Assembly: GCA_964519665.1 (NCBI GenBank)
Contig: CAZFIV010000059.1
Span: forward strand, 1-42,427
DNA: 42,427 nt
Source: an uncultured Myxococcales bacterium
Lineage (GTDB): Bacteria > Myxococcota > Kuafuiibacteriia > Kuafuiibacteriales > Kuafuiibacteriaceae
Direction of reading: 5' to 3'
Shown here: positions 5,411-34,690 of the stretch, one piece after another
Numbering within the stretch: the first letter of the stretch is position 1
Layout of the letters: each line of letters begins with the position of its first letter
The notes under the pieces: generated by a model
The model's database searches: none
Told to the model about the DNA's origin: nothing
What the model saw: the letters and a program-made list of their open reading frames with translations, nothing else
Position numbers and translations under genes: made by a program

Positions 5411-6342
5411 GACCAAGCCTCCTGTGTGTCTGCCACGGCTTCCGCGCGCAGCTGAATGGCGTGATGCGGACACTGGACCGCACAGATTGCGCAGCCCTTA
5501 CAGTGGTCGAGGTCGATCGTCGGTGGGGATCCGTTTTCGACCCGAATGGCTCCGTCGGGGCAGAAACTGCTGCACACCCACCAACACTGACGGCATTGCT
5601 CGGGCTCGATCACCGGTCGCACCGTTCGCCACAGCCCCGTCCGAACCGCGGTCGACGTCGCCTCGGCGAAGATCGATGGCGTAGCGGCTTTGCCGTGTGT
5701 GGCCTCGACGTCGATCCAGGCGGGTGGTCGAAGCTGAAGCGCGGCCCGGTCGTCGCGAGGAGACAGAGGTGTATCGCCTCCGAGCTCGTCGTATCCCAAT
5801 TCGGCCGAACGGTACCCATCCCGAAGCGATGCTTGGCCGAGTGGTGCGATCTCATCGCGGACCGCATCCATCAAGGTGGTGCGCGAGATGACGCCGACCC
5901 ACCGAGCGGCGGCGGCGGCCATCGTCAAGCTGCTTTGCTTGCCGGCGCGGCCACAGGCGACGGTGACGATCGGTCCCGGCAAGCGGAGTCGCTCCCGCCA
6001 CAGGTCGGCGGAAGTCTCGGTGGCGACCAGGAGACCCGTATGGGCGTCGATGCCTTGCAAGACGCCGGCGGCCGAAACCGCCATGAGCGTGTCATCGACG
6101 ACAACGACCAGATCGGGCTCTCGAATAATGCCGCGCTCGAAGACCGACCCGTGGCGAGCACGGACGTAGGCAAAGATGGGCGCACCTCTCCGTTCGGCGC
6201 CGTAGCGGGGGGCGTCTTGCACATCGTAGCCCTCCCGGAAGAACGCGCTTCCGAGGACCCGACTGGCGGTCTTGACGCCTTGGCCTCCCCGACCATGAAA
6301 TCGAACTCTGAACATGTCACCTCCGACGGGTCTCGGATCCAT
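5407..6342 (-). CDS. porGD: 2-oxoacid:ferredoxin oxidoreductase fused gamma-delta subunit (delta = 2x[4Fe-4S] ferredoxin domain)
   Basis: 311 aa. The N-terminal gamma-subunit signature is FHGRGGQGVKTAS, and the C-terminal part carries two CxxCxxCxxxCP clusters (CRQCWWVCSSFCP, CKGCAICAVQCP). Confidence 0.8.
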   Translation of the reverse strand: MDPRPVGGDMFRVRFHGRGGQGVKTASRVLGSAFFREGYDVQDAPRYGAERRGAPIFAYVRARHGSVFERGIIREPDLVVVVDDTLMAVSAAGVLQGIDAHTGLLVATETSADLWRERLRLPGPIVTVACGRAGKQSSLTMAAAAARWVGVISRTTLMDAVRDEIAPLGQASLRDGYRSAELGYDELGGDTPLSPRDDRAALQLRPPAWIDVEATHGKAATPSIFAEATSTAVRTGLWRTVRPVIEPEQCRQCWWVCSSFCPDGAIRVENGSPPTIDLDHCKGCAICAVQCPHHAIQLRAEAVADTQEAWS

Positions 6343-6484
6343 TCAAGAATCGGACCCATGGGGGACATAAACGGCCTCGAGAGACTGGTTTCACCCTGGT
6401 AACGGGACGTTGGAAAAGCGACGTATTCAGGTGCGTTCAAGGTCAAGATCACCCGTAGCCGACGTGATGTTCACAGCGGAATGA

Positions 6485-6817
6485 TCAGGGGGCTCCCCAG
6501 TAGGTCGTAGAAACGACGATCGATGATCGCTCCTTCGGGAGCCGAAGACGGCAAGCCAACCTGACTTGAGGGCTGGCCTCGGCAAAACGATCGAGCAATG
6601 CTCGCTCGTCCGGAGCCGCCGATGGAAGCTCTTCCACCTCGTCTTCGACATATACCCAGCATTGCCCGCAGATAGTGCTACCTCGGCAAGAGGTTCGAAT
6701 GGGCAGCCCGAGGCGCTCGAGCGCTTCGTAGAGGGTCTCTCGGTGACCCACCGGGACCTTCCGAACCACTTGTTGCGTGCGGCGGTTCATTAAAACGAAG
6801 TGAGGGACAGCGACCAT
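6485..6817 (-). CDS. [2Fe-2S] ferredoxin-like protein
   Basis: 110-aa ORF with the Cys pattern CRGSTICGQC...C(34)C characteristic of 2Fe-2S ferredoxins. It sits directly upstream of the POR operon on the same strand; the start may be the internal Met at 6790. Confidence 0.6.
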   Translation of the reverse strand: MVAVPHFVLMNRRTQQVVRKVPVGHRETLYEALERLGLPIRTSCRGSTICGQCWVYVEDEVEELPSAAPDERALLDRFAEASPQVRLACRLRLPKERSSIVVSTTYWGAP

Positions 6818-6955
6818 ACCGAACGATGATCCGGACCATATCCCGTTGCAACTCGCCCGTCACCCACTGGAAAGGGTGTAGCACGAGGCGGTATCGAAAG
6901 GACCAACCTCGTTTCCGAATCGTGACGTGTCAGCAGTCAGGACCGTGAAAGCTGA

Positions 6956-9538
6956 TTGGCGAACGGTTTGCACGGGAACGCTTCAATGAAAGCGGCGCTT
7001 CGTCCCGACGAGCTTCGTCGTCCCTGCCGGGCAGCCGACCACGAGTGCTTTCGAGCTGACCAACAATCGTTCGCCGAGGCCACAGTAGGACAGCCCCGAG
7101 CGGTCCGCAGCCTCGAGCTCGGTATTCGCATCGACTCGCCGGGCTACAACATGTTCGTGACCGGCCTATCGGGTTCCGGTCGAACTCACACGATCCGAGA
7201 GCTCCTCCGCCGTTTGCCGACCCCCCACCGTCGGGGCCACGACCGGGTCTACGTGCACAACTTCGAGGACCCATCCCGCCCGAAGCTGCTCACTTTCGTC
7301 CGGACTCAGGGTGTCCGCTTCAAGCAAGCGCTTCGTGAGATGGTCGAGACGGCGACCGAGCGCATCCCACAGATCCTGGACGAAGATGTGTATCAACAGC
7401 GCCGGCAGGCGATCACCGAACAGGCTCAAAGCGAAGAAAAGGCGCTCTTTCAGGCCCTGGAAGCCCGGATCCGCGAAGATGGGTTTCGTCTGATCGTGTT
7501 GCAAGGAGGTCCGATTCCGATACAAGCGATCGTGCCGGTGATCGATGGCAAGCCGATTCCGATCGAGGCGCTGCGGGCGGATCCCGAAGCGCGAAGCGCC
7601 CTCCGAGTGCAGAAGGTTCGCGAGCTACGGGTGGCGCAGCGACCGTCGCCGGAGGACGACGCGACCCTCGAAGCGCTGGTCAACGAGGCCATCGAAGACT
7701 TCGAGCGCCGACAGACCGAGCACCGCCGAGCCCTGGAAGACGCAGGCAAAGCCGCCCGGAGAATCGCTCGCCGAGCGACTTCGGCGCTTCTCGAGCTGGA
7801 GCGAAGTACGGTCCGGCGCGCCGTGGAAGGTCTGGTTGGCGATGTCAAAGCGGAGTTCGACGGCGAGGTGGTTTCGAAGCATCTCGATGCTTTGCTCGAG
7901 CACATGATGGCTCACCCTTCGCTGTTCGTACCCAGCGCGGGCCCGGAACCCCGACCGTCGCCGTCGGGTTCTTCGACGCTGGAGGCTACGCCCGAGCCGT
8001 TGGCCATCTACGGCGCGAACGTCATCCAGGAGGTCACCGGGGCCGATGCGCCGGTCATCGTCGAGCGGCACCCCACGCTCTCGAACGTGTTCGGTACCGT
8101 AGAGCGGGACGTCCTCGCGTCGGGGGCGGTGACCACGGACTTTACGAAGATTCGACCCGGAGCGTTGTTGAGGGCCGACGGTGGGTTCCTGATCATGTAC
8201 GCCCGCGACGTTCTGGCCGAGCCGGGCGTATGGCGAAACCTCATGCGGACCTTGCGTTCGCGGCAGCTCGAGATCCAGCGACCCGATTCGGTCCTGTATC
8301 TGCTTCCTTCGTCGGTGAAGCCGGACCCGATCGATATCGACGTGAAGGTCATCTTGATCGGTGACGAATACCTCTATCAGTTGCTGGCCTACTACGAGCA
8401 AGACTTCCTGAAAGTATTCAAGGTGAAGGCTGAGTTCGACTCGACCATCGAAGGTGATGCGCGGGGCACCTCGGAGTTTGCCGACGTGATTCGGGGGTTC
8501 GTGAGCCAGGACGATCTTCGGACGTTGGCGTCTGATGGTTGGGAGGCCCTCGCCGAACAAGCAGCTCGCCTCGCCGGCCACCGCGAACGGCTGTCGACTC
8601 GGTTTGGCGATATCCAGGATATCTTGAAGGAAGCCGACTATTGGGCGTGGTCGACCGGCGCGACGCAGATCGGTCGGGAGGCGGTCGACACCGCGATCCG
8701 CGAGATGCGGGGCCGACATCAACTTCTGTCCGATTTAATGACCCGCCAGATTCAGGAAGAGGTCGTCTTGATCGATACTCAGGGGTCGCGCATCGGTCAG
8801 ATCAACGGGCTGGCGGTCTTCGGCTCCGGAATTCACCGATTCGGCAAGCCGACCCGAATCACCGCGGCGATCGGCGCGGGCCGCGGCGGTCTCATCAACA
8901 TCGAGCGAGAGGCGCATCTGTCGGGTCCGACCCACGATAAGGGGATCCTGATCCTGGCTGGATACCTTCGTTCGAAATACGGGCGGGAGACGCCGCTCGC
9001 GCTCACCGCGTCGATCGCCTTCGAACAGTCTTACGGGGGCGTCGACGGGGATTCGGCCTCCTTGGCCGAGCTCTATGCGCTCCTCTCGGCGATCAGCCGG
9101 CGGCCGCTGCGGCAGTCGGTCGCCGTCACTGGATCGATCAATCAACGCGGAGACGTGCAAGCGATCGGTGGCGTCAACGAGAAGATCGAAGGCTTTTTCA
9201 ACCTGGCTCAGGCTCGCGGGCATTCGGGGCAGGGGTGCTTGATCCCGGTGGCGAACCAGCAACATCTTATGCTCGACCAGTCGGTTGTCGAAGCGGCCGA
9301 GCAGGGGCTTTTTTCAGTGTGGACCGTCGATTCCGTCGAAGACGGCATCGAACTCATGTTCGGTATCCCGCCGTCCGAATTGCACGCGTTGGTGCGTAAG
9401 CAGCTCGAGGCGCTCGCCGAAGTCTCGAATGGCGAGCCCTCGGTGCAGCGTATCGATCCGGCTCGGCCGTACCGCGACGAACCACCTTCGGTCCCTGAGG
9501 ATCCGAAGCTCCCCGGTCCCAGTCGAGTCGACGACTAA
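6956..9538 (+). CDS. Lon-like ATP-dependent protease (N-terminal AAA-like domain plus C-terminal S16 Lon proteolytic domain)
   Basis: 860 aa. The C-terminus has the Lon catalytic Ser-Lys dyad context GGVDGDSASLA...VAVTGSINQRGDVQAIGGVNEKIEGF. The N-terminus has a P-loop-like GLSGSGRT; the start could be one of the downstream Mets. Confidence 0.75.
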   Translation: MANGLHGNASMKAALRPDELRRPCRAADHECFRADQQSFAEATVGQPRAVRSLELGIRIDSPGYNMFVTGLSGSGRTHTIRELLRRLPTPHRRGHDRVYVHNFEDPSRPKLLTFVRTQGVRFKQALREMVETATERIPQILDEDVYQQRRQAITEQAQSEEKALFQALEARIREDGFRLIVLQGGPIPIQAIVPVIDGKPIPIEALRADPEARSALRVQKVRELRVAQRPSPEDDATLEALVNEAIEDFERRQTEHRRALEDAGKAARRIARRATSALLELERSTVRRAVEGLVGDVKAEFDGEVVSKHLDALLEHMMAHPSLFVPSAGPEPRPSPSGSSTLEATPEPLAIYGANVIQEVTGADAPVIVERHPTLSNVFGTVERDVLASGAVTTDFTKIRPGALLRADGGFLIMYARDVLAEPGVWRNLMRTLRSRQLEIQRPDSVLYLLPSSVKPDPIDIDVKVILIGDEYLYQLLAYYEQDFLKVFKVKAEFDSTIEGDARGTSEFADVIRGFVSQDDLRTLASDGWEALAEQAARLAGHRERLSTRFGDIQDILKEADYWAWSTGATQIGREAVDTAIREMRGRHQLLSDLMTRQIQEEVVLIDTQGSRIGQINGLAVFGSGIHRFGKPTRITAAIGAGRGGLINIEREAHLSGPTHDKGILILAGYLRSKYGRETPLALTASIAFEQSYGGVDGDSASLAELYALLSAISRRPLRQSVAVTGSINQRGDVQAIGGVNEKIEGFFNLAQARGHSGQGCLIPVANQQHLMLDQSVVEAAEQGLFSVWTVDSVEDGIELMFGIPPSELHALVRKQLEALAEVSNGEPSVQRIDPARPYRDEPPSVPEDPKLPGPSRVDD

Positions 9539-9689: not shown

Positions 9690-12008
9690 ATGTTCTTTAC
9701 CGACGTTCCCGCTCCGCGCACATCGATGATCGTCTGGTTCCTTGCCGCCGCGTCGCTGGTGCTTGGGCCCGCGGCCGCAGAGGCGGGACCCGCGGATGAA
9801 TCGGAGCCCACGCCCGGCACATTGGCGATCGAAGTCGGGAAGGGTTCGGATGCGGCCCCCTGGGTCGCGGCGGCGCTCGAGGCGCATCTCGCCCGTGAAC
9901 TTTCGACGTACGAACGGTTGAGCGTTCGTCACCCGGACGCGGCGGTCCATCAGGCTTGCGGTCAAGACCGCGGTTGCCGGTTGGCGCGATATCGCGAAAC
10001 CGGTGTCGACGTGCTGTTTGTGATGTCGGTTCGCGCTGACGCCATTCGTTACGAGCTTTACGAGACCTGGACTCCGTCCGAGGTCGACCGGGGCGCCATC
10101 GCACTCGGCGATATCTCGACCTTGATCGGGCTGCGGCAGCGCTTGCTGGCCGTTTTTACTCCGGTGCTCGCGCCTGGTGGCCTCCTTGACCAAAAGCCGT
10201 TTCGAACTTCGGGACGAGCGTTGAGCGGGGTCCCCGCGGTCCGCCCCGACCGCATAGCGGCGCTGCTCGCTGCGGTTGCGTTGTTCCTCGCTGTTCCTTG
10301 GGGTTTCGCATTCATGGTCCTTTCGGACCGGCGCCGGCTGTGGAGTCAGCGATGGCCGTCGCTGTGGGCGGCCACAGGGGCACTGGCGGTAGCGGCGGCG
10401 CTGATGCTGGGGGCTGGAGACCGGTTGACGGTGGGGCCATCCGCGTGGGTGCTGGGTCTGGTCGGTGGCGCGGCGTGGGGCACCTTCTTCGTGACCAACG
10501 TCCGATTCCTGGCGCCTCCACTGCCTGGGCTCGGCCGGGTGGAGCACCGAGACGTGTTTCGCCTGGTCGTCGCGTGGCTGGTCGTGGGTGGCACGCGATT
10601 CATCGGCCTGACGCTTTATTACCTTCCCTTTGCGTGGGTCACCTTCGAGATGGATGAGGGCCTTGGTCTGTCGTCGGAGGCGGCAATGATACTGCTCGCG
10701 CCGTCGGTGGGTCTGATGGCCCGCGGCTGGTTGTCGAGCTGGATGCACGTGGCGGCGCTGGTCCTCGATGAATGGTTGGTCATCGGCGAGGCTGGTCCCG
10801 ACAATCCGTGGCACCGCGAGGTCTCGAGGTATTTCACCGGCTACCTCCGCCGCACCGGGTGGGCGCTCGACCCCGAGATCCTCGACTCCCTCCTCTTTCT
10901 CCCCGGCGAGCGCGAAGGTGTCCGGTGCTACGGCGGCGGCGGGATTCCGGCCCGGGTGGTCATCGACGAGCGCCTGTTGATTTTGGCCATCGGGGCTCGC
11001 GACGACCGGGATGAAGACGGCGAAGCGGTGGCGGTGCCCGACTGGACGGCGGGACTCGTGATCGCGCAGTCCTCGCCGCCGCCGGCAGCTCGGCCGCGGC
11101 CTCGTCGGCAGCCTCGCTTACGCGGTCGGGCTCCGCTTGTTCGCCGGGAGCCGCTGACCTCCGAAACGGGCCATCAGCGCAAGCATCTCGGTCAGGCGGC
11201 AACGCTCTTGGGCTATGTGCGGCCGGAGCCCGAGGAGCATGTGCCGCTCATCGCGGACACCGTCGAAGACCTCGAGGTCGTGCGGGCCCTGCTCGCCGAG
11301 CACTATCAATGGTTCGCTCCGGATCCCGATGAAGACCACGATGACACCGATCCGACCGACAAAGACTTCTTGTTCGGCCCGCTCACCCACGCCGTCGGGC
11401 GGTTGATTCGCCAGGACAGCCGGCTCGGGATCTTCGCGCTCCTGGCCGCGGAGCGAGCCCACCGCAGTATGACAGTGGTACGTTGGCTGCACCGGCAGAT
11501 GACCGCGCTGGTGACCGGCCTCGTTGGACGCTCGGCCGTGGTCATCGCCGACGCCTACCCCGCGCTGCATTTCGCGGGTCATCATCACCTGCAGTATCTC
11601 GTGTACCGAGGGACGGGCCGCGAAGACCACTTGACGGTGCGAGCGAGCCTCGATGAGCTCGAGCGCACCTCGAGGCGCGCTCTAGGGAGGGTCGGCCGAG
11701 AAATGGTCGAAGCCGACCCGCCGACCCGCCCGGTGTTCGTGCGCCGCCTGGTTTGGCTGTCGAGCTTCCTCGCCGAACCACTGGTCGACCGCGGCGAACG
11801 TCGGCTTCGTTGGGCGGCAACGACGCTCATGGTGTTGGTAGCGCTCGGCGGACTGGGCGGCTCTGTCTATCGGGCCGTCCGCTACCACCCGGTATACATC
11901 GAACGAATGGCGGAGCAGGAGCGCCGCCGGCAACGGGTCGATCACCAAGAAGCTCAAGAGAACGAAGGAGCTGCATCGCATGTCGGAAAAAGAAACGCCT
12001 CCGAGTAG
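9690..12008 (+). CDS. large polytopic membrane protein, unknown function (first gene of 7-gene coupled operon)
   Basis: 772 aa with an N-terminal signal-like hydrophobic segment (MIVWFLAAASLVLGPAAAEA), a central cluster of about 6 TM helices, a cytoplasmic region and a C-terminal TM segment. It overlaps the next gene by 29 nt. Confidence 0.55.
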   Translation: MFFTDVPAPRTSMIVWFLAAASLVLGPAAAEAGPADESEPTPGTLAIEVGKGSDAAPWVAAALEAHLARELSTYERLSVRHPDAAVHQACGQDRGCRLARYRETGVDVLFVMSVRADAIRYELYETWTPSEVDRGAIALGDISTLIGLRQRLLAVFTPVLAPGGLLDQKPFRTSGRALSGVPAVRPDRIAALLAAVALFLAVPWGFAFMVLSDRRRLWSQRWPSLWAATGALAVAAALMLGAGDRLTVGPSAWVLGLVGGAAWGTFFVTNVRFLAPPLPGLGRVEHRDVFRLVVAWLVVGGTRFIGLTLYYLPFAWVTFEMDEGLGLSSEAAMILLAPSVGLMARGWLSSWMHVAALVLDEWLVIGEAGPDNPWHREVSRYFTGYLRRTGWALDPEILDSLLFLPGEREGVRCYGGGGIPARVVIDERLLILAIGARDDRDEDGEAVAVPDWTAGLVIAQSSPPPAARPRPRRQPRLRGRAPLVRREPLTSETGHQRKHLGQAATLLGYVRPEPEEHVPLIADTVEDLEVVRALLAEHYQWFAPDPDEDHDDTDPTDKDFLFGPLTHAVGRLIRQDSRLGIFALLAAERAHRSMTVVRWLHRQMTALVTGLVGRSAVVIADAYPALHFAGHHHLQYLVYRGTGREDHLTVRASLDELERTSRRALGRVGREMVEADPPTRPVFVRRLVWLSSFLAEPLVDRGERRLRWAATTLMVLVALGGLGGSVYRAVRYHPVYIERMAEQERRRQRVDHQEAQENEGAASHVGKRNASE

Positions 12009-12834
12009 CCCGGCGGCCGGTTCAGCCGGCGAAGCACCGGAACCACAGTTCTTCGAGACGGTGCATCGCTCTCGCCTCGCCATCAACAAAGCGAGAGCGG
12101 GGGCCGGCGTAGCGGGCTTGCTCGGGTTCGGGGCGCTGTTCGTCGTAGCGGCGGTCTTCTTCGTGACCGAGAGCTACTTCATCTCGATGATGATGATCTC
12201 TTTTGCGCTGCTCATCTACGTGTCCGGCGCCGAGCTGGTAAAGCTGTTCCTTTCGACGGTGACCGTCTTCTTTTCGAGTAAGCACGTCATCGATCGGGCT
12301 TCGTACCTGCAAGAAACGCTGGTGCCCATGCAGAGATTCTTGCAGGTCCGACTCGATACGACCGGGACGGTCAAGCTCAGCGCGATCCAGCCGGGAGCGA
12401 CGGTCAAGCTGCCCGACAATCCGCTTTCGCGCGACATCGCCACTATCTTGGATGGCAAAGAAGAGCCCACAGAGTATCTTCAATACATCGCGCACGCCTA
12501 TTACGCCGAGTGCCACGAGCTCTACGACTACTCGAGCGCTCACCTCGAGTTCGTCGCGCAGACCATGCCGCTGTTCGGCTTGATCGGCACCATCGTCGGC
12601 CTGATCGGCATGTTCGACAGCCTGAGCGCCGACGTCACCGTCGAGTTCGTTTCGCCGCAGCTGGCCCTGGCACTCAAGACCACCCTGTACGGGGCGGTCT
12701 TCTCGTCGATCTATAAGATCATCGCCTCCCGCTTCGACCAGCGGCTCAAGGCGCTGGACTACGACTTCGAGACCTTCTGCCGGGCGCTCGAAGTCCTTAT
12801 CGAGAGCAAGGCAAAAGTGAGGGTCGGCTCATGA
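11980..12834 (+). CDS. MotA/TolQ/ExbB-family proton-channel protein
   Basis: 284 aa with a 2+2 TM topology and a roughly 120-aa cytoplasmic loop. The C-terminal MotA_ExbB signature is MPLFGLIGTIVGLIGMF...LALALKTTLYGAVFSSIYKII. The 4-nt overlap with the next gene indicates translational coupling. Confidence 0.8.
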   Translation: MSEKETPPSSPAAGSAGEAPEPQFFETVHRSRLAINKARAGAGVAGLLGFGALFVVAAVFFVTESYFISMMMISFALLIYVSGAELVKLFLSTVTVFFSSKHVIDRASYLQETLVPMQRFLQVRLDTTGTVKLSAIQPGATVKLPDNPLSRDIATILDGKEEPTEYLQYIAHAYYAECHELYDYSSAHLEFVAQTMPLFGLIGTIVGLIGMFDSLSADVTVEFVSPQLALALKTTLYGAVFSSIYKIIASRFDQRLKALDYDFETFCRALEVLIESKAKVRVGS

Positions 12835-13436
12835 AGCGCGTTTACGTGCTCCCGCGCGCCCCTCGGCGAGGAGGCGAAGTATGGCAGATCATCTATATGG
12901 ATTTGATCACCATCGTCATGGTGTTCTTCGTCATCCTGTGGTCCATCAATCAAGGTCGCGACGACAGCTCCGCCGATTCAACGGGAGACGAGACGACCCG
13001 CAAGGTGAATCTCCCCGGCGATGTTCTGTTTCCATCCGGCAAGTCCGAGCTCACCCCTGAAGGCAAAGAAGTGTTCAGCAAGTTGTTCGAAGAGGGCACT
13101 GACGAGGTCCTCAACTTCGATCTCGGGGGGCTCAATCGTCGTCTATTGATCATCCACGGGCACACCGACAGCGATGGCGACAAGATCAACAACTTTGGTC
13201 TCGGCTACCGGCGGGCGTTCTCGGTGTACCGAGAGATCGAGTTCTATGGCCCGCAGGTCGCCGACCACGTCGTCATCTGCACGCATGCCGACAACTCGCC
13301 GGTCCAAAGAACGCCGGCCTTCCAGGGCCGCCTGAGCCCGGCCCAGCGGGAGGCGTTGCGCGAAGCGAAGTCCCGCAACCGGCGCATCACCATCGAGGAT
13401 AAGATCGTCAGCGTGACGGCGGTCGACGAAGAGTGA
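12831..13436 (+). CDS. MotB/TolR-like stator subunit with OmpA-like peptidoglycan-binding C-terminal domain
   Basis: 201 aa. The N-terminal segment WQIIYMDLITIVMVFFVILW matches the MotB TM/plug region with the conserved protonatable Asp. The C-terminal GHTDSDG...N..LGYRRAFSV matches the OmpA-like motif. Confidence 0.8.
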   Translation: MKRVYVLPRAPRRGGEVWQIIYMDLITIVMVFFVILWSINQGRDDSSADSTGDETTRKVNLPGDVLFPSGKSELTPEGKEVFSKLFEEGTDEVLNFDLGGLNRRLLIIHGHTDSDGDKINNFGLGYRRAFSVYREIEFYGPQVADHVVICTHADNSPVQRTPAFQGRLSPAQREALREAKSRNRRITIEDKIVSVTAVDEE

Positions 13437-13442
13437 CGCCCT

Positions 13443-15059
13443 ATGCGGATCGGCGCCAAGAGTATCACCGGGTTTACACTTTTGGTCGCGAGTACCCTCA
13501 CCGCGGTGTCTTTGGGGCGCCTGAGGGCGGACTATCTCGCGCAGCTCGACCCGTGGACGAGTTTTGCGGTCGGGGCCTTCGCGGTCGTGGCGGCCCGGGC
13601 CGTCTTTCACTTCGGGCGCCTCGGTCAGTCCAGCGAGAATTTTCTCCGTATCGGCGGGGCCGACGGCGCTCGGGTCGAACGGGAAGACCCTTTCGGCCAG
13701 GGCCCCCGACGTCAGCCGATCTGGTGGCGAAGGACCCGCGCCGGGCTGTTGCAGACCGCCTACGTGGCGATATTTCTGCAGGTCGGGCTGGTGACCCTCG
13801 ACAACCGCGGCGTCGCGCTGCTCGCGGCCTTGCCGGCCGCGTTCGGCCCCTCCAGCTACGAGTACTGTCTCGAAGAACAAGCACCGGAACCCGAGGGCCC
13901 CGAGCTCGCGGGCTGCAGTCTGATCAGGAGAGCCTACGAACTCGGCTATGCCAGCGATCTTGGGCCCTGCGCACCGAAGGAAGAGGAGGTCGCCGATGCC
14001 GTTTGCGACCGCCGTCAGCTCGACGAACCGTATCTTCACTACGCATGGCGACTCCTCGGGGCGCGCCGCGCCGACCTCCTGCCGGACGCTCGAGAAGGGG
14101 TGCAGGCGGCGCTGACCAAGATCGATGAGCAGTGGGAGCATCTGGGTGACCTCGTGCTCGCTCAGCGGGATCCGATCGCTCGGACCCCGCGCGCTTCGCA
14201 CCATCTATTCACCAATCTGCCGCCGCCGCGCGAAGACGTGGTCGGCCGGGTGGTGGATGTGCTCGACGCGGCGGCTTGCGATCGACGGGCGATGAACATG
14301 CCTCCGCTGGTGGCCGTCTCGGAACAGACGAACGCTTCGAGCTCGATCGTCGAGCACGTCGTCGGACATCTGCTGTTCAATCCCGCTTATCCCACGGTGG
14401 TCGGTTCCTGCCGCGAATTCACGATCCACTGGGCAGCGTCGACCGATATCTGCGACCGGTTGGTCGAGGGACCGGCCGGCGTTCTAGAAAACGACCGGAC
14501 CCTCGCCGGGGTGCGAACAGTGATGGCCCGGTACCGGCGCGCACTCGTAACCTGGGAACTGGCCGGCGAAAGTGGAGCGGGCCCCATACCTCCTCGGCCG
14601 CCCCCGCTGAAGAAGATCGTGAGTTTCCAGTGCTTCATGGTCGACCGAACGTCTTCTTCGGTGGCGACCCCAGTCACGTCGCGTACGACGACCCTGCACG
14701 GCCATACCTTGAGCGTACGCTTGACTCGGGTGGCGCCCTTCGGTGCCGACGTGCGCGACCAGATCGGTACGTTCAAGCACCTGTCTCGTCTGCTCGCGCC
14801 GGGCTTCGGGTACGGGTCGCTGCAGAGCGAACAATCGTTGGTCGAGGCCGCGGCGGGATTGTCGGTGGCCAAGCAATTCACCAATGACCGAGACCTGCTG
14901 AGCAAGCTCGAGCTCTTGCGAGAGACGGACATCTTTCTCGGTCACGAATGGCTCGACCGACGACCGGACCTGTTGGTCGTATATCCGTACCACGTGCATC
15001 TGAACAATTTCGTCGAGGCGTTTCGTAGGCACTATCAGCACGCGAGGACCCGACTATGA
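13443..15059 (+). CDS. hypothetical membrane-anchored protein (4 N-terminal TM helices, large soluble domain)
   Basis: 538-aa ORF with GC-rich third positions, beginning 7 nt after the MotB-like stop. No recognisable domain. Confidence 0.5.
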   Translation: MRIGAKSITGFTLLVASTLTAVSLGRLRADYLAQLDPWTSFAVGAFAVVAARAVFHFGRLGQSSENFLRIGGADGARVEREDPFGQGPRRQPIWWRRTRAGLLQTAYVAIFLQVGLVTLDNRGVALLAALPAAFGPSSYEYCLEEQAPEPEGPELAGCSLIRRAYELGYASDLGPCAPKEEEVADAVCDRRQLDEPYLHYAWRLLGARRADLLPDAREGVQAALTKIDEQWEHLGDLVLAQRDPIARTPRASHHLFTNLPPPREDVVGRVVDVLDAAACDRRAMNMPPLVAVSEQTNASSSIVEHVVGHLLFNPAYPTVVGSCREFTIHWAASTDICDRLVEGPAGVLENDRTLAGVRTVMARYRRALVTWELAGESGAGPIPPRPPPLKKIVSFQCFMVDRTSSSVATPVTSRTTTLHGHTLSVRLTRVAPFGADVRDQIGTFKHLSRLLAPGFGYGSLQSEQSLVEAAAGLSVAKQFTNDRDLLSKLELLRETDIFLGHEWLDRRPDLLVVYPYHVHLNNFVEAFRRHYQHARTRL

Positions 15060-15688
15060 GCGGCGTGGGTTCGGCGGGGGTCGTCATCTCGATGCTCATG
15101 GCGACCGGGGCGCCCTCTATTATGGAAGCGGGCGACAGCAGTGACGTCCGGCGCCGCACTCTGGAAGATACCTTCGTGGCCTTTCGAGCAATGGACGAGG
15201 CGTCACGAACTCGAATCTTCAACTATATTTATAGAATCGAGCGAGATAAGTGCCAGGCGCCGCTGAGAAGCCTGAAGGTGGGCTGCCTGCTCGAGGCGGC
15301 GCGCCGAAACTGCCGACGGCGCGGGGTCCATCAGCGAAAAGAGTGTCGCCGGGTCTCGGATGTCATCGTCGCCAATCGGCTGAGCGAGCCGAGGTTTCTG
15401 ACCCGTTCCGACCGCTACCAAATTATGAAAGAAAGCGACAACTATCGCGACGGGCTGTCGGCGGAGCTTCGCCGACGCTATGCGCGTTTGGTGACCGGGC
15501 TGTACCTCAAAGTGCCGGTGCCTGCCGACGCGGCGCCCGAAACCTTGGCCGCGGCCGTAGACGGATACTGTCTCGACATTGCGGGGCAACGCAGCCGACT
15601 GTCGTGGACGCACTGCGCCGCCGCGGTGGTCTGGTTTATCGGTACGAGCCCGAGCGAAGCGTCGGTTGACAAGGCGGTGGGGCCATGA
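15056..15688 (+). CDS. hypothetical Cys-rich protein
   Basis: 210 aa with 4-nt overlaps at both ends (ATGA coupling). No recognisable domain. Confidence 0.45.
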   Translation: MSGVGSAGVVISMLMATGAPSIMEAGDSSDVRRRTLEDTFVAFRAMDEASRTRIFNYIYRIERDKCQAPLRSLKVGCLLEAARRNCRRRGVHQRKECRRVSDVIVANRLSEPRFLTRSDRYQIMKESDNYRDGLSAELRRRYARLVTGLYLKVPVPADAAPETLAAAVDGYCLDIAGQRSRLSWTHCAAAVVWFIGTSPSEASVDKAVGP

Positions 15689-16848
15689 CCCGTGCACTGC
15701 TGCGGCACTTGGCGAACGAGACCAGCAAGCTTCAGCAGGCGGGGCTCTACAAGCAGGAAGTTGCCGACGAGCGCGATGCGCCGAGCGGGTCCATCGACTT
15801 CACGAGCGGCGACGTCCTCGGCCTCGAGCATCGACCCGAGGTGGCCGACGCGGCTGTCGCCGCCATTCGCGAACACGGGCCTGGGCGGTCGTCGCCACGT
15901 CTGTTTGGTGGCACGCTGTCGATTCACCAGAGGTTGGAGGCGAGGGTCGCTTCGCTGATCGGTGTACCCGAAGCGATCGTGTACGCCAGCGGCTATCTCG
16001 GCAACGTCGGTCTATTCGATACGATGTTCGATGCGCGGGACTGTATTCTCGTCGACGCTGCGGTCCATCCCAGCTTGGCCGAGGGCATTCGACTCTCCGG
16101 GGCCCGGGCCTTGCCTTACGTCAGTGAGGATCTCGAGAGTCTAGACGACCGGCTGCGACGGTCGCGAACGGCCCGATTCCGAGTCGTGGTGACCGATGGC
16201 GTCTTTCCTTTGAGTGGAAATCTTGCACCACTGGGCGAGCTGTGCGATCTCGCGGACCGCTACGACGCGCTGGTGGTCGTGTACGACGCATTGGGCGTCG
16301 GTGTTCTCGGCGACGGGCAAGGGGGCAGCGTCGAAAAGTGGGGCGTCGCGGGTCGGGTGGACCTGGTCACCGGGACGTTCGTCGATGTGCTCGGTGGAGC
16401 AGGGGGGGGCTATGTGGCTGGTCGGCCGGAGATGATCTCGTGGCTGCGCCAGAAGTCCACGCCTTATCTATTCTCGGGTGCGCTCCCACCCGGAAACGCC
16501 GCCGCTGCCCAGGCCGCGATCGAGCTGGTGAGCAGCGGCCAAGCGCCCGCCCGCGAGGTCCTGGCTTTGACCACGGCCTTCAAAGAGCAGCTCGAGGGCC
16601 GAGGGTTCGACGTTCAAGGTGACGGGCACGCCATCCTCACGGTCGTCGTCGGCAACGCGGTGACGCTGCAGCGGATGGTCAACCAGCTGGGGGAGCTCGA
16701 TGTGCGGGTGCAGGGTATGTGCTATCCTGTTGTGCCCGAGAACATGGCACGCATTCAGTTCAGGATCACCGCGGCTCACACCGAGGCGGTGCTGAGCACT
16801 GCGGTTGAACGTCTGGCGCAAGCGGCCCAAACACTGCACCTCCTATGA
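15685..16848 (+). CDS. alpha-oxoamine synthase family (AONS/KBL/serine palmitoyltransferase-like) PLP-fold protein lacking the catalytic Lys; predicted pseudoenzyme
   Basis: 387 aa with the class-II aminotransferase fold (HPSLAEG ~ HAS motif; GTFVDVLGGAGGGYVAG ~ GTFSKALGxxGGY). The Schiff-base Lys position is Asp (T-F-V-D), and the D-x-A-H motif is VYDALGVG, with His replaced by Leu. Confidence 0.7.
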   Translation: MTRALLRHLANETSKLQQAGLYKQEVADERDAPSGSIDFTSGDVLGLEHRPEVADAAVAAIREHGPGRSSPRLFGGTLSIHQRLEARVASLIGVPEAIVYASGYLGNVGLFDTMFDARDCILVDAAVHPSLAEGIRLSGARALPYVSEDLESLDDRLRRSRTARFRVVVTDGVFPLSGNLAPLGELCDLADRYDALVVVYDALGVGVLGDGQGGSVEKWGVAGRVDLVTGTFVDVLGGAGGGYVAGRPEMISWLRQKSTPYLFSGALPPGNAAAAQAAIELVSSGQAPAREVLALTTAFKEQLEGRGFDVQGDGHAILTVVVGNAVTLQRMVNQLGELDVRVQGMCYPVVPENMARIQFRITAAHTEAVLSTAVERLAQAAQTLHLL

Positions 16849-18422
16849 CGGTGAACGAGTCTTCGACGGACCTGCGGCGAAGGATGGCCCTTCGATTCTC
16901 TGGGACGACCGCGGACCTACCGCGGTCGATCTTCGGCCGCCTCCGCTACGCCTCCGGTATCGCCAGCCTAGGCGGATTTCGAAGGCTCGTCCGAATCCTG
17001 CCCGACAGCGAGACCCGGGCCGTGGCTGACCAGAAGGCGGTCGAGAACATCGTGCTGTCGCTCGGCCGGCTCAAGGGCGTGCCGATGAAGTTAGGGCAGC
17101 TGGCGGGGTATGCCGACTCCGGTGTTCCGCCGGCGCTGCGGCCGGCCTTCGCGGCCCTCGAAACCCACGCCCAGGCGGTACCCGTGGCCCACATGCGCGC
17201 GGTGCTGGATAAAGAGCTCGGGCCGCGCGCAGACGAGCTGTGGACGACCATGAGCTGGACCCCAGTCGCGGTCGGCACGCTCGGTCAGGTATACCGGGCG
17301 GAGCTCGACGGGACGCCCGTCGCGGTCAAGATTCGATACCCGGACATCGAGAGGACGATCCGCCTCGATTTTCGCCCGGCCGCCCTCGGCTCTCAGGCGA
17401 TGGACGCCTTTCGCCGCCGGGGGCGACGAGGCGATGCGACCATCAAAGAAATCATGGGTCGTATCCTCGACGAGTGCGACTACCGCCAAGAAGCAGAGCG
17501 GCAGCAAGCCTTCGCTCACGCCTTCGACGAGCATCCGGTCATCACCGTGCCGCAGATCTTTTCAGAATATTCGACGCCGGCCGTCCTGACCACCGAGCTC
17601 GCGGAAGGGCAGCACCTCGACGAATACCTGGCGACGAAGCCGAATGTCGAAGCACGGGAGCGCGCAGGGCTGGCGTTGTTCGACTTCTACGTCGGGTCGT
17701 TGTTCGTGTTGGGGGCGTACAACTCGGACCCGCACGCCGGAAACTACATCTTTACCGACGATGGCCGAGTCGTCGTGTTCGATCACGGCGCGGGCCGAAC
17801 CTTTTCGAGCGTCCCGATCAGTGCGATCCGATACCTGGGGCAAGCGATGCTCAGCGACGACTGGGCCGGGGTTCGCGAGGCCCTCGGGGCCCTCGGAATC
17901 GTGCCCAGCCGAGAGCGGCTCGATGAAGCGCCGCTGCGGCGGGTGCTGACCTGGCTGTTCGAGCCGATGCTCGCGCCCGACGAGTCGCAGTGGACCTTGC
18001 CGAACGCGGAGGAGGTCGGTGCGATCACCAAGTGCGTGCGGGAGTACAAGGCGATCGAGCTTCCGTCGGAGCTGGTCTTCTTGATTCGGCTTCGGGTCGC
18101 GCTATCGGCCGTGTTGGCTCGGCTCGGAGTGCAGGCCAACTGGCGAGAGGTTCTCGGTGCCCATCTCCAGGGTGACTTCTTTCTTCGGCCCCCCCCGCTC
18201 GATGTGGTGCTCGTCGAGCCCGGTCCCCGTCCGATCGAGCTGCTACGGGTCTTGCGGGACGAGCTCGGCGGTGCGGTCACCGAGGCCAAGGCGCTGATCG
18301 ACGCCGTCCCCTGCGTAGTGCGGTCCGAGCTCGACCGAGACGTAGCGAGGGCCGTCGGGGCACGACTCACCGCAGCCGGAGCAAAAGTCGACCTGCGAAC
18401 GCCCCCGGAAGCGCGTTCCTAA
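16845..18422 (+). CDS. ABC1/UbiB-family atypical protein kinase fused to a C-terminal ribosomal L7/L12 C-terminal-like domain
   Basis: 525 aa. The ABC1 signature is WTPVAVGTLGQVYRAELDGTPVAVKIRYPDIERTI plus a downstream catalytic HAGN motif. The last ~70 aa (LDVVLVEPGPRPIELLRVLRDELGGAVTEAKALIDAVPCVVRSELDRDVARAVGARLTAAGAKVDLR) align colinearly with the bL12 CTD (FDViL..GanKvaViKavR..tGLGLKEAKdLVEsaP..lKegvsKddAEalKkaLEeAGAeVevK). Confidence 0.75.
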   Translation: MTVNESSTDLRRRMALRFSGTTADLPRSIFGRLRYASGIASLGGFRRLVRILPDSETRAVADQKAVENIVLSLGRLKGVPMKLGQLAGYADSGVPPALRPAFAALETHAQAVPVAHMRAVLDKELGPRADELWTTMSWTPVAVGTLGQVYRAELDGTPVAVKIRYPDIERTIRLDFRPAALGSQAMDAFRRRGRRGDATIKEIMGRILDECDYRQEAERQQAFAHAFDEHPVITVPQIFSEYSTPAVLTTELAEGQHLDEYLATKPNVEARERAGLALFDFYVGSLFVLGAYNSDPHAGNYIFTDDGRVVVFDHGAGRTFSSVPISAIRYLGQAMLSDDWAGVREALGALGIVPSRERLDEAPLRRVLTWLFEPMLAPDESQWTLPNAEEVGAITKCVREYKAIELPSELVFLIRLRVALSAVLARLGVQANWREVLGAHLQGDFFLRPPPLDVVLVEPGPRPIELLRVLRDELGGAVTEAKALIDAVPCVVRSELDRDVARAVGARLTAAGAKVDLRTPPEARS

Positions 18423-18437
18423 CCTCGCAAGCCGAGG
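18423..18437. terminator. short GC hairpin (cctcg-caagc-cgagg) in the 32-bp spacer between convergent genes
   Basis: 5-bp stem immediately after the TAA stop of the kinase gene. It sits between the convergent gene ends at 18422 and 18455 and is weak (no U-tract). Confidence 0.25.
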
Positions 18438-18454
18438 CCGAGCGGGCCTTTCGA

Positions 18455-18988
18455 TCACTTCGCGAGGAGCGAGTGGACCGAGATGCTGGCGAGTGCCAGG
18501 TCGGCCGTCATGGCCTTGCCGATGGCCACGAGGCCGAGTCGGCGAACGCGTGAGCGGTCGAGGGGCGCATCGATTCGATGGGGAACGAAGCCATCGACGG
18601 GAAGGTCGACCACGGTCCAGACCGGCGGAGCTCGAAAGGACTGCCGATACGACTGCCAGGGGTGTCGAACATCGGGCGTCTTGAGGTGACAGCCGTAGGT
18701 CTCGCCGTTGCCCAGCACGAGCAAGCGCAGTTGAGCGCTCGAGGACAGGTCGAGCTCGAGGTTGGCCGCCATCTGTACGAAGCCTCCGCCATTGTCGAGG
18801 CGAACGTGCCCCACGAGCCGCAGTGCCGGACGGCCGTCGATGACCTCCGCTCGTAGCTCCCCCGATGAACGACCGCCCATGACTTGGTCGAGAACGAGAG
18901 TAAAGCGCGGTCCCTGCTTGGACGGATCGAAGATAAGCATAAACCAGTGTCCGGCCGGAGAGTACAGGCTGACAAATCGCTGGTCCAT
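18455..18988 (-). CDS. CIA30-family protein (complex I intermediate-associated protein 30-like)
   Basis: 177 aa with the conserved QVMGGRSSGEL (VMGGvS) CIA30 motif. Its start ATG directly abuts the TGA of the upstream redoxin gene (TGAATG). Confidence 0.6.
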   Translation of the reverse strand: MDQRFVSLYSPAGHWFMLIFDPSKQGPRFTLVLDQVMGGRSSGELRAEVIDGRPALRLVGHVRLDNGGGFVQMAANLELDLSSSAQLRLLVLGNGETYGCHLKTPDVRHPWQSYRQSFRAPPVWTVVDLPVDGFVPHRIDAPLDRSRVRRLGLVAIGKAMTADLALASISVHSLLAK

Positions 18989-19777
18989 TCAGTCGAGGTG
19001 CGCTCGCAACGCCGCGAGCACGACTTCTGGACCAGAGCGCCGCAGATAGTCCTCCGCCTGGTCGATCCACAAGACCTTGCCCTGTTGGTCCACCAGCAGT
19101 GAGGTTGGTACCGGCAGCGCGTCTGCGTGATCGCTCGGTGGGCCTGAGTGGAATCCTTGATTGCGCAAGCCAAACGCATCGGTCACCACCAGCTTCGGAT
19201 CCGACAGCATGATGGCCTGCAGTCCGTGCTGGTCACGCTTTGCGCGTATCGCTTGAGGCTGATCCGTGCTCACCGTGAGCACCTGAACCCCGCGTCGATC
19301 GAACTCCGGCCGCAGTTCTTCCCATCGCCGCAACTCGGCGACGCAGTAGGGTCACCAATGCGCGCGGAAGAACTTAATGAGTACGATGTGACCCCTGAGG
19401 CTCTGGGAGTCAAAGGCATGGCCGTGTTCGTCGACCGCGGCAAAGCGCGGTATCGTGTCGCCCACCTGGATGGCATCGACTGCGGCTTCCTGCGAGCTGA
19501 CCGCGATTGTCAACGGAACGAGCGCCCCGAAGAAGATCGCGGGCAGTGCCGCAATGGCGCCGTACCAGCGAGTGCCGGCCACGAACGCGCCGATTCCGAG
19601 CGCTCCCGCGGTCAAGAAGAGGAACACGAAGACAGACCGGTTCTCTGGAATCTCGACTCGATTGATCAGATGCGCCCACACCGCGAGGGTCACACCCACC
19701 AGTGCGGCCGCCAGTAATCCGAACGTCGTCCCCAACCTTTTCGGATTCTTTCTACGCGCCCTCGGTGCCTCGTTCAT
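18989..19777 (-). CDS. membrane-anchored TlpA/ResA-like thiol:disulfide oxidoreductase, selenocysteine-containing candidate (in-frame UGA at 19352..19354; U-P-Y-C redox motif)
   Basis: Track ORFs 19352..19990 and 18989..19333 share one frame and are separated only by a TGA: ...GHIVLIKFFRAHW-[TGA]-PYCVAELRRWEELRPEFDRRGVQVLTVSTDQ... This is a redoxin domain with TGA at the first Cys of WCxxC. A 7-bp hairpin with an AGUUG loop (GUCGCCG-AGUUG-CGGCGAU) starts 9 nt after the UGA, which is bSECIS-like. The N-terminal part has 2-3 TM helices. The start is uncertain (19777 MNEAPR..., or up to 19990). Confidence 0.65.
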
Positions 19778-34395: not shown

Positions 34396-34649
34396 GCGGG
34401 CCTCCTTCGTGCGTTGAGGGGTTGCTGAACGGGGGGCGCCCGGGGGCGCACTCCAGGGCGAACGCGGCGGCCCGCCGACGGTCGACGTCGGCGGGCGGCG
34501 TTGCGTTCGGCGACTCGAGGCGCGCATGGCGGCGGTCGCTCCGAAGAGTCGACTCCGGCCGGACGCCGCCCCGCAGCAGGTTAGAGGTTGTTTCAAGGAT
34601 ACGTCGTCAGATTAAAAGTCTGATGCCTTTACCGTTTTGGCCAATCACC

Positions 34650-34690
34650 CAACCGAGGATGATCCAGGACTCGAACCTGGAATGACATGA
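34650..34690 (-). other. tRNA-like fragment: canonical T-arm (CCAGG-TTCGAGT-CCTGG) with partial acceptor-like flank; no complete cloverleaf found
   Basis: The minus-strand sequence tCCAGGTTCGAGTCCTGGatcatcc lies in an AT-rich ~560-bp non-coding gap. Manual folding gives an imperfect 6/7 acceptor pairing (GCGATGA/TCATCCT) with one extra nucleotide and no convincing D or anticodon arms. Confidence 0.35.

Follow-up and report, generated by a model that had tools for sequence, protein, structure and literature searches.

Within a 42,427-nucleotide (nt) stretch of DNA from an uncultured Myxococcales bacterium (contig CAZFIV010000059.1; the whole stretch is referred to here as the window), seven plus-strand open reading frames (ORFs) spanning 9690-18422, here g1 to g7, form a cluster whose first six genes are inherited as a block across highly divergent genomes, an arrangement far beyond chance. 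Two of these genes encode a MotA/MotB-like pair and, as judged from profile and sequence comparisons, the cluster appears to be a 5:2 ion-motor system whose partners are all new, lying outside the flagellar, Ton/Tol, gliding and Zorya systems. The reading we favour, tentatively and with a probability of about 0.4, is that the cluster specifies a dedicated envelope machine whose core is a 5:2 ion-driven rotary unit anchored to peptidoglycan. The features on which the argument draws are the following, with lengths in amino acids (aa), TM for transmembrane, PLP for pyridoxal phosphate, CTD for C-terminal domain and HMM for hidden Markov model.

9690..12008, plus strand: g1, a 772-aa polytopic inner-membrane protein
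9816..10184, plus strand: g1 periplasmic N-domain (residues ~43-165), an alpha/beta fold like those of TolB-N, LpoB, PelC and FlgT
11980..12834, plus strand: g2, 284 aa, a MotA/PomA-type A subunit with 4 TM helices
12831..13436, plus strand: g3, 201 aa, a MotB-type B subunit
12900..12902, plus strand: codon of g3 Asp24 (in YMDL), the putative ion-binding residue
13443..15059, plus strand: g4, 538 aa, with three N-terminal TM helices and a ~400-aa periplasmic domain
15056..15688, plus strand: g5, a 210-aa secreted protein
15685..16848, plus strand: g6, 387 aa, a pseudo-enzyme of the alpha-oxoamine synthase family closest to glycine C-acetyltransferase (KBL)
16384..16386, plus strand: codon of Asp234 of g6, the residue found in place of the PLP Schiff-base Lys (KBL K244)
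16845..18422, plus strand: g7, 525 aa, a soluble ABC1/UbiB-family atypical kinase/ATPase with a C-terminal bL12-CTD-like domain
18189..18407, plus strand: bL12-CTD-like module of g7 (residues ~449-521), 109 bits with an HMM built in this analysis

The ORF list of the window gives these genes the same coordinates as a preliminary description made from the sequence alone, which had reported seven genes overlapping by 4-29 nt or lying 7 nt apart. In gene order the junctions are a 29-nt overlap (g1/g2), a 4-nt overlap (g2/g3), a 6-nt gap (g3/g4, the start of g4 being 7 nt past the last stop base of g3) and three 4-nt overlaps (g4/g5, g5/g6 and g6/g7). The gene set of the seven-gene unit proposed in that description thus stands; its extent as a conserved unit does not, as only g1-g6 are held together and g7 is an exchangeable accessory. 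A gene-neighbourhood search of the kind the description had proposed found the gene order conserved across metagenomic loci: g1-MotA-MotB-g4-g5-pseudoKBL (g1-g6) is kept in all of the approximately 25 independent loci whose sequence extends far enough, and these loci have unrelated flanks, 35-60% identity and GC contents of 34-74%. The overlapping gene junctions are kept in the relatives too. Because the same order and the overlapping junctions recur in ~25 loci with unrelated flanks, the arrangement is not a product of chance. All seven genes occur in the same order in loci L001, L003, L004 and L005; L002 carries g1-g5 and is alone in being without g6, which leaves a five-gene unit there.

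The genes that define the cluster are rare and closely tied to it. Wherever the cluster occurs g1 is its first gene and g5 directly follows g4, and g1, g4 and g5 are found in this cluster context only. Homologues of g1 are scarce: a word search recovered 11 clusters, and out of 1.84e9 an exhaustive profile search picked 294 representatives at E<=1e-3. A profile search with g4 returned 59 clusters, every one labelled 'hypothetical', including matches on a 6.6-Mb contig (L012) and an 815-kb contig (L013), the operon of the latter stopping at g6. Scanning metagenomes with a g2 alignment added 50 further loci, and a scan of GTDB genomes with an acidic-motif pattern gave at least one locus among the matches listed. 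The locus census was tabulated with HMMs built in this analysis, whose E-values are relative to the fetched loci only. The named sources are metagenome-assembled genomes (MAGs) of Myxococcota or Kofleriaceae and one Gammaproteobacteria MAG belonging to a low-GC clade, these taxon labels resting on a few MAG annotations. The viral contigs of IMG/VR and the plasmids of PLSDB yielded no copies of the cluster, no flagellar genes lie within the 10-kb flanks of any locus, and a search across loci for further conserved genes 3' of g6 or of the VWA-L12 genes described below found none that recur.

The motor assignment is carried by g2 and g3. The A subunit, g2, falls in the MotA/TolQ/ExbB superfamily, with Pfam PF01618 (MotA_ExbB) matching residues 165-264 at 58.1 bits against a cutoff of 22.9; the top NCBIfam model is PomA, which covers nearly the whole protein but scores 50 bits where the cutoff is 341. 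Its sequence matches in the PDB are Aquifex MotA (1e-7), Vibrio PomA (5e-7, residues 44-252 against 6-204), TolQ (3e-5) and ExbB (0.55). Across 55 loci the TM3 segment MPLFG.I.T..GL and the TM4 segment SPQLALALKTTLYGA are invariant or near-invariant, and the cytoplasmic loop of ~95 aa between TM2 and TM3 is conserved, including the motifs LPDNPL.RD and AH.YY.EC.E.Y. The B subunit, g3, consists of a single TM helix with Asp24, a linker of ~20 aa and an OmpA-like peptidoglycan-binding domain. Pfam MotB_plug matches it at 29.6 bits (cutoff 24), with only the TM part aligned (positions 13-41 of the 58 in the model), Pfam OmpA scores 25.4 bits, slightly below its cutoff of 27.2 (E 1.8e-5), and PADLOC ZorB models match the periplasmic domain better than Pfam OmpA does, at up to 8e-14. 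NCBIfam MotB-family models give 17-28 bits against cutoffs of 250-342, and the nearest PDB sequence is Campylobacter jejuni MotB (2.5e-5), to whose channel Asp ('pyaDfls') Asp24 aligns. Asp24 is invariant in 46/46 loci, as are W18, Y22 and L25, and the peptidoglycan-contact motifs are likewise present, with GHTD and RA invariant and N121, LG and NRRIT invariant or near-invariant in the same loci. Pfam, NCBIfam and PDB sequence matches therefore agree with the earlier call of a MotA/ExbB-family channel, and the invariance of Asp24 and of the OmpA-type residues agrees with that of a MotB-like subunit retaining its TM Asp and an OmpA-type anchor; indeed, when profile searches were run on the proteins every domain call held, those of MotA and MotB included.

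Comparison with flagellar stators (MotAB, PomAB, MotPS) brings out both the kinship and its limits. Like PomA, with which it aligns over its full length, g2 has 4 TM helices and carries Pro-x-x-G-x-x-GT in TM3 and TTLYGA in TM4; g3 has the N-terminal TM helix with an invariant Asp and the C-terminal OmpA-like peptidoglycan-binding domain; and the genes for the A and B subunits are adjacent and overlapping. However, g2 and g3 score far below all equivalog cutoffs for stators, the equivalent of PomA Pro199 in TM4 is not conserved in g2, and g3 has neither a match in the plug-helix region nor a long linker. The partners here are g1, g4, g5 and g6 rather than a FliG rotor, and flagellar genes are absent nearby. 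In a survey of stator proteins that distinguishes flagellar from 'generic' ion transporters, many of the latter having no assigned function, the g1-g7 gene set is absent (PMC12505986).

The Ton (ExbBD-TonB) and Tol-Pal (TolQRA-TolB-Pal) systems are similar in that ion-driven 5:2 units energise an envelope task via dedicated partners; g2 is weakly related to TolQ in sequence, and the g1 N-domain has the fold of the TolB N-terminal domain. They differ in that g2 is of the 4-TM MotA type and not the 3-TM ExbB/TolQ type, g3 is OmpA-like and not of the ExbD/TolR fold, and Pfam and NCBIfam find no TonB- or TolA-like protein, TolB beta-propeller or Pal among the cluster proteins. For the gliding motors (Agl-Glt; GldLM/PorLM), which were compared by profile only, the seven proteins gave no Pfam or NCBIfam match at E<=0.01. 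Zorya is an anti-phage 5:2 motor with effectors, in which ZorA carries a long C-terminal coiled-coil tail (PMC11946911). It resembles the cluster in having a peptidoglycan-binding MotB-like subunit outside motility, the periplasmic domain of g3 matching ZorB HMMs, and in pairing a membrane core with soluble proteins of the cytoplasm that vary from one variant to another. Nevertheless, g2 has no PADLOC ZorA match and at 284 aa lacks the long tail, PADLOC matches none of the cluster proteins to ZorC, ZorD, ZorE, ZorF or ZorG, and the cluster has three extra envelope proteins and sits outside defence islands. Membership of Zorya or another defence system was rejected on these matches, which are to ZorB-like peptidoglycan-binding domain models only, together with the housekeeping flanks and the lack of copies in the viral contigs and plasmids searched. 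The preliminary description had likewise noted a short MotA with nothing resembling ZorC or ZorD beside it, and had set the partners apart from flagellar, Tol-Pal, TonB, Agl/Glt and Zorya components; Pfam, NCBIfam and PADLOC find no such families among them. Its statement that the combination matches no described system also survives, as neither the profiles nor the literature returned a known, named cluster; our literature search found no description of the gene combination or of ABC1-L12 fusions.

The three envelope partners have no match in Pfam, NCBIfam or PADLOC. The layout of g1 comprises a signal anchor, the periplasmic alpha/beta domain, ~5 TM helices, a putative cytoplasmic region of ~350 aa that holds the motif DDTDPTDKDFLFG, invariant in a 53-sequence alignment, and a C-terminal hydrophobic helix. 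In its N-domain the Cys pair C90 and C96 is near-invariant, and the full-length AlphaFold2 model is poor (predicted local distance difference test score, pLDDT, 56) and interpretable for the N-domain only. Eight Cys are conserved in the periplasmic domain of g4, which also contains a cluster of conserved His and acidic residues (D194, E195, H199, H253, H254, H329 and H519); the g4 model is confident, yet has no significant structural neighbour. In g5 six Cys are invariant in 26 loci, and a signal peptide of the Sec type is present in its orthologues, most clearly in those of L002 and L008. We place the g1 N-domain, the g4 C-domain and g5 in the periplasm because of the conserved Cys pairs and the TolB-N/LpoB/PelC-like fold of the g1 N-domain. 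These results bear out the earlier sketch of the partners as a 772-aa multi-TM protein with a periplasmic N-domain (g1), a 538-aa membrane-anchored protein, now with three N-terminal TM helices (g4), and a Cys-rich 210-aa protein (g5).

The HExxH zinc-binding motif of metzincins and M48 peptidases was considered for g4 and g1 and is present in neither. A separate proposal, that g1 is a degenerate M48/M56 peptidase, was suggested by the motifs 'FLPG..YGGG..IDERLL' and 'LEVVRALLAEHYQW' and was rejected: Pfam searched at E<=10 with ten members gave nothing consistent, the 53-sequence profile had no PDB match, and across the wider family neither the His nor the Glu is kept. Six long variants of the g1 family (P0258, P0276, P0278, P0281, P0282 and P0293; 1040-1490 aa) match chiefly at profile positions ~185-480, the TM and juxtamembrane region, and their extensions contain no Pfam domain and are uninformative as a functional clue.

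The sixth gene encodes a protein with the full-length fold of KBL and the alpha-oxoamine synthase family and strong sequence similarity to them. Pfam Aminotran_1_2 matches g6 at 126 bits and NCBIfam KBL at 347 bits, under the equivalog cutoff of 460. Aligned over its full length with Escherichia coli KBL (1fc4, E 1.5e-84), the protein in the window differs at the residues on which catalysis depends, with the Schiff-base Lys244 replaced by Asp, His213 by Leu and the PLP-binding Asp210 by Tyr, and so it lacks the catalytic set of the alpha-oxoamine synthases (KBL, AONS, SPT, ALAS). Over 23 loci the His213 position is Leu in 20, Gln in 2 and His in 1, and the K244 position is Lys in 8, with D/E, Y, H, A, R or C elsewhere. 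Read from this alignment, the loss of the Schiff-base Lys (15/23 loci) is clade-specific and that of His213 (22/23) is family-wide; the g6 family appears non-canonical as a whole, and catalysis seems to have been dispensed with repeatedly. An earlier designation of g6 as a dead AONS-like enzyme is therefore right as to the replaced catalytic residues, KBL and not AONS being the closest family.

The seventh gene of the window encodes the ABC1 kinase-bL12 fusion announced in the preliminary description, as Pfam ABC1 and Ribosomal_L12 both score above cutoff. ABC1 (PF03109) matches at 153.5 bits, which places g7 in the ABC1/UbiB family, and comparison with the Mycobacterium tuberculosis ABC1 protein 5yjz (E 6e-34) shows the KxGQ, VAVK (beta3 Lys), DPHAGN (DPHxGN) and DHG (DxG) motifs retained, as expected from the soluble ABC1/UbiB ATPases (5yjz, MABP-1 7cy2, COQ8). 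It is not UbiB in the strict sense, with TIGR01982 at 119.9 bits against a cutoff of 487 and no convincing TM segment, and it falls under the equivalog cutoffs of both UbiB and MABP-1; unlike the soluble family members, it is fused to a bL12-CTD-like domain and tied genetically to a MotAB-type cluster. The Pfam Ribosomal_L12 C-terminal domain matches residues 453-517 at 37 bits (cutoff 25.9), whereas a full bL12 is not present: the CTD alone matches, TIGR00855 reaches 34 bits against a cutoff of 84, and there is no N-terminal dimerisation/L10-binding domain or hinge. Aligned to the CTD of E. coli bL12, the domain keeps the helix-4/5 pattern, and its I-E-L-L-R and V-T-E-A-K-A conservatively match residues 66-70 and 80-85 of the E. 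coli domain, which shift upon binding of translational GTPases, so that the GTPase-binding helix-4/5 surface is conservatively retained (PMC3505967).

An L12-CTD-like domain adjoins the cluster in ~20 loci, on varied proteins at varied positions, being appended to ABC1, VWA, hydrolase or DUF2934 heads. An ABC1-L12 gene 3' of g6 characterises the clade of the window, with orthologous fusions in L001 and L003-L005. Distant ABC1-L12 fusions of 40-45% identity lie divergently upstream of a g1-MotA-MotB-g4-g5-aminotransferase operon; the divergent upstream position is seen in L008, L016-L018, L022, L062 and the P0034 locus, and a co-directional upstream one in L042. As the distant fusions still adjoin the g1-g6 operon in divergent orientation, the linkage survives rearrangement. 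VWA-L12 genes lie downstream, convergent or upstream in L012, L048, L051, L058, L015, L059 and L062. In L063 two fusions adjoin g1 (6281-7789), one an alpha/beta-hydrolase-L12 (Abhydrolase_1 6e-29, Ribosomal_L12 1e-21) and the other a 109-aa DUF2934-L12 protein. L028 (3001-4335, minus strand) and L032 (6464-7798, minus strand) carry a 445-aa ABC1 protein without an L12-CTD, divergent from g1, so that the ABC1 association is independent of the L12 domain. Judged from this distribution, the L12-like domain behaves as a portable handle.

A model that accommodates these observations starts with g2 and g3 assembling as A5B2, with g3 anchored to the wall. Ion flow past Asp24 would turn the g2 pentamer around the wall-anchored g3 dimer and, by analogy with flagellar stators, work would leave via the conserved cytoplasmic loop of g2 and the membrane periphery. 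The recipient of this work would be a fixed partner complex of g1, g4 with its putatively disulfide-rich periplasmic domain, and g5, through which proton- or sodium-motive force might drive a conformational task on the side of the envelope that faces the cell wall or outer membrane. The most natural role for g6 would be that of a non-catalytic, structural cytoplasmic subunit, and the L12-CTD-like domain may serve for docking, as a handle by which interchangeable cytoplasmic clients reach the machine or its target. In the window that client would be an ABC1 ATPase/kinase, apparently active to judge by its motifs, and in other loci a protein with a VWA, hydrolase or DUF2934 head. That g7 is of the ABC1 family and that g6 derives from the KBL/SPT family may point to lipid or small-molecule handling, though only as a hint.

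The reading as an envelope machine is supported by the conservation of the motor residues, the co-inheritance of g1-g6, the overlapping junctions, the catalytic loss in g6 and the recurrence of L12-CTD and ABC1 neighbours, and further by the housekeeping flanks and the absence of copies from the viral contigs and plasmids searched. Several points weigh against it. The link among the seven proteins is one of co-inheritance alone, the g4 fold has no informative neighbour and the cytoplasmic domain of g1 no usable model. Because the g3 linker is short and the plug unmatched, gating and the reach to the wall may differ from those of flagellar stators. L12 and ABC1 genes are both absent in six loci with good flanks, and g6 is missing from one locus, so that the cytoplasmic module is not essential; being variable or absent, the L12 and ABC1 genes are recurrent but dispensable companions. 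Finally, swappable cytoplasmic heads on a constant adaptor are commoner in signalling and conflict systems than in structural machines.

This last point leads to an alternative that we consider rather unlikely, though the strongest competitor: a Zorya-like envelope sentinel or stress-signalling system, in which the wall-anchored MotAB-like pair and the periplasmic parts of g1, g4 and g5 would sense an envelope disturbance such as phage, predator or wall damage, and the resulting activation of the motor would pass via the cytoplasmic domains of g2 and g1 to L12-docked effectors (ABC1, VWA or hydrolase). Zorya itself is the precedent for a 5:2 motor used as a sensor (PMC11946911), and the better match of the g3 periplasmic domain to ZorB (8e-14) than to Pfam OmpA (1.8e-5) and the short g3 linker, which is like that of a directly mounted peptidoglycan-binding domain, both fit. 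So does the combination of a constant adaptor with variable heads and an accessory gene that shifts or is absent, a modularity like that of the effectors in conflict systems. In L012 there are MoxR-AAA and DUF2201 genes besides, and the patchy occurrence in two phyla and at GC contents of 34-74% points to horizontal transfer. Set against this are a g2 of 284 aa with no ZorA-type tail, the want of any PADLOC match beyond generic ZorB/OmpA similarity, a cluster with no nuclease or other obvious toxic effector, flanks of housekeeping genes and not defence islands, absence from the viral contigs and plasmids searched, and the six loci that have no L12 or ABC1 output gene nearby. A related option, unlikely in our estimate, is an undescribed functional class in which the wall-anchored MotAB/PomAB-type unit and the three proteins of unknown fold relay envelope state to enzymes addressed by their L12-CTD, with a possible translation-factor or lipid/quinone link, and which has spread between Myxococcota and Gammaproteobacteria.

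The resemblance to bL12 raises the improbable but specific alternative that the L12-CTD-like domains are decoys or targeting handles for EF-Tu, EF-G or IF2, and that the envelope motor regulates or relocates these factors, for example through phosphorylation by ABC1 or sequestration by VWA proteins. The Pfam Ribosomal_L12 score above cutoff, the conservative retention in g7 of the equivalents of residues 66-70 and 80-85 (PMC3505967) and the constancy of the adaptor under variable heads would all be expected. But no locus encodes a GTPase, the cluster also has ABC1 companions that carry no L12, the ligand of the L12-like fold could be a core subunit and not a translation factor, and the binding is one predicted from sequence in a setting where affinities of L12-CTD for the factors are weak, 0.1-0.4 mM (PMC3505967). 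The most ordinary explanation, a relic or spare flagellar stator (a motAB/pomAB paralogue) lying beside unrelated membrane and metabolic genes, would account for the labels 'flagellar motor protein MotB' or 'OmpA family protein' that pipelines attach to g3 orthologues and for the flagellar identity of the nearest solved relatives of g2 and g3. Yet that similarity is remote (E ~1e-7; NCBIfam 18-50 bits against cutoffs >300), g1, g4 and g5 are found in the cluster context only, no 10-kb flank contains a flagellar gene, and six genes keep the same order and overlapping junctions in ~25 loci with wholly different flanks. The neighbourhood census effectively excludes this explanation, and we give it next to no weight.

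To our knowledge, each characterised 5:2 ion motor (flagellar stator, Ton, Tol, Agl, GldLM, Zorya) is a distinct conversion of membrane potential to work or signal. The cluster would offer another type of 5:2 motor with a defined, conserved parts list: three partners without known homologues, one of them with a confident model lacking a significant structural neighbour, and one pseudoenzyme. Kinases, VWA proteins and hydrolases that share the bL12 CTD as a portable tag would be without precedent. For motor biology this is a compact six- or seven-gene system in which to ask what else rotary units power, and for translation biology the loci supply a natural set of non-ribosomal L12-CTD fusions. 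The pipeline label 'flagellar motor protein MotB' for g3 is misleading in genomes without flagella.

Some loci carry features of their own. In the low-GC clade (0.34-0.46 GC; L019, L031, L033, L035, L037, L038, L041, L044, L046, L048-L051 and L058) the Schiff-base position of g6 is occupied by Tyr and VWA-L12 is usually present; the MotB-like protein of this clade is a member of a 50-member 90% cluster, one entry of which, MEJ2179593.1, bears the label 'MAG: flagellar motor protein MotB [Gammaproteobacteria bacterium]'. On the L012 contig the VWA-L12-CTD gene is the seventh gene and is followed by two small unknown genes, a gene for a MoxR-like AAA+ ATPase and one for a DUF2201_N protein (13914-19762); it is possible that the VWA and MoxR genes form a VWA-MoxR chaperone module attached to the system. 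Paralogous soluble ABC1 proteins with ~40% identity to g7 and no L12 occur in L010 (7778-11374) and L011 (722-4318), 3' of DUF6310 and DUF5953 genes in a context unrelated to the cluster. In L004 and L005 (ENA ERZ26696514, contigs of 1.8-2.1x coverage) the seven-gene cluster is fragmented by apparent frameshifts, for which errors of long-read assembly at low coverage are the likeliest cause, ahead of pseudogene formation.

The window is even in composition, at ~64% GC, and the housekeeping genes that flank the cluster encode an APH kinase, an EamA transporter, a 2-oxoacid:ferredoxin oxidoreductase and PPK2. Immediately 5' of the cluster, 151 nt away, is the gene for an 860-aa LonB/LonC-like AAA+ protease (6956-9538, plus strand; TTG start in the ORF list) with AAA_32, LonB_AAA-LID, Lon_C and LonC_helical domains and weak PADLOC matches to BrxL and mad8; it adjoins the cluster in no other locus and was ruled out as a member. 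Scanning for promoters and terminators was uninformative because of the high GC content of the DNA: between 9000 and 19500 of the window there are 19 terminator-like hairpin-plus-T-run matches against ~6 expected from shuffles, mostly inside coding sequence and several in the g2-g4 genes, which is probably an effect of composition and not a sign of terminators. At 34582-34650 on the minus strand Rfam makes a tRNA call at its gathering threshold (30 against 29 bits), ARAGORN reporting no tRNA in the window, and the call may represent a degenerate or unusual tRNA.

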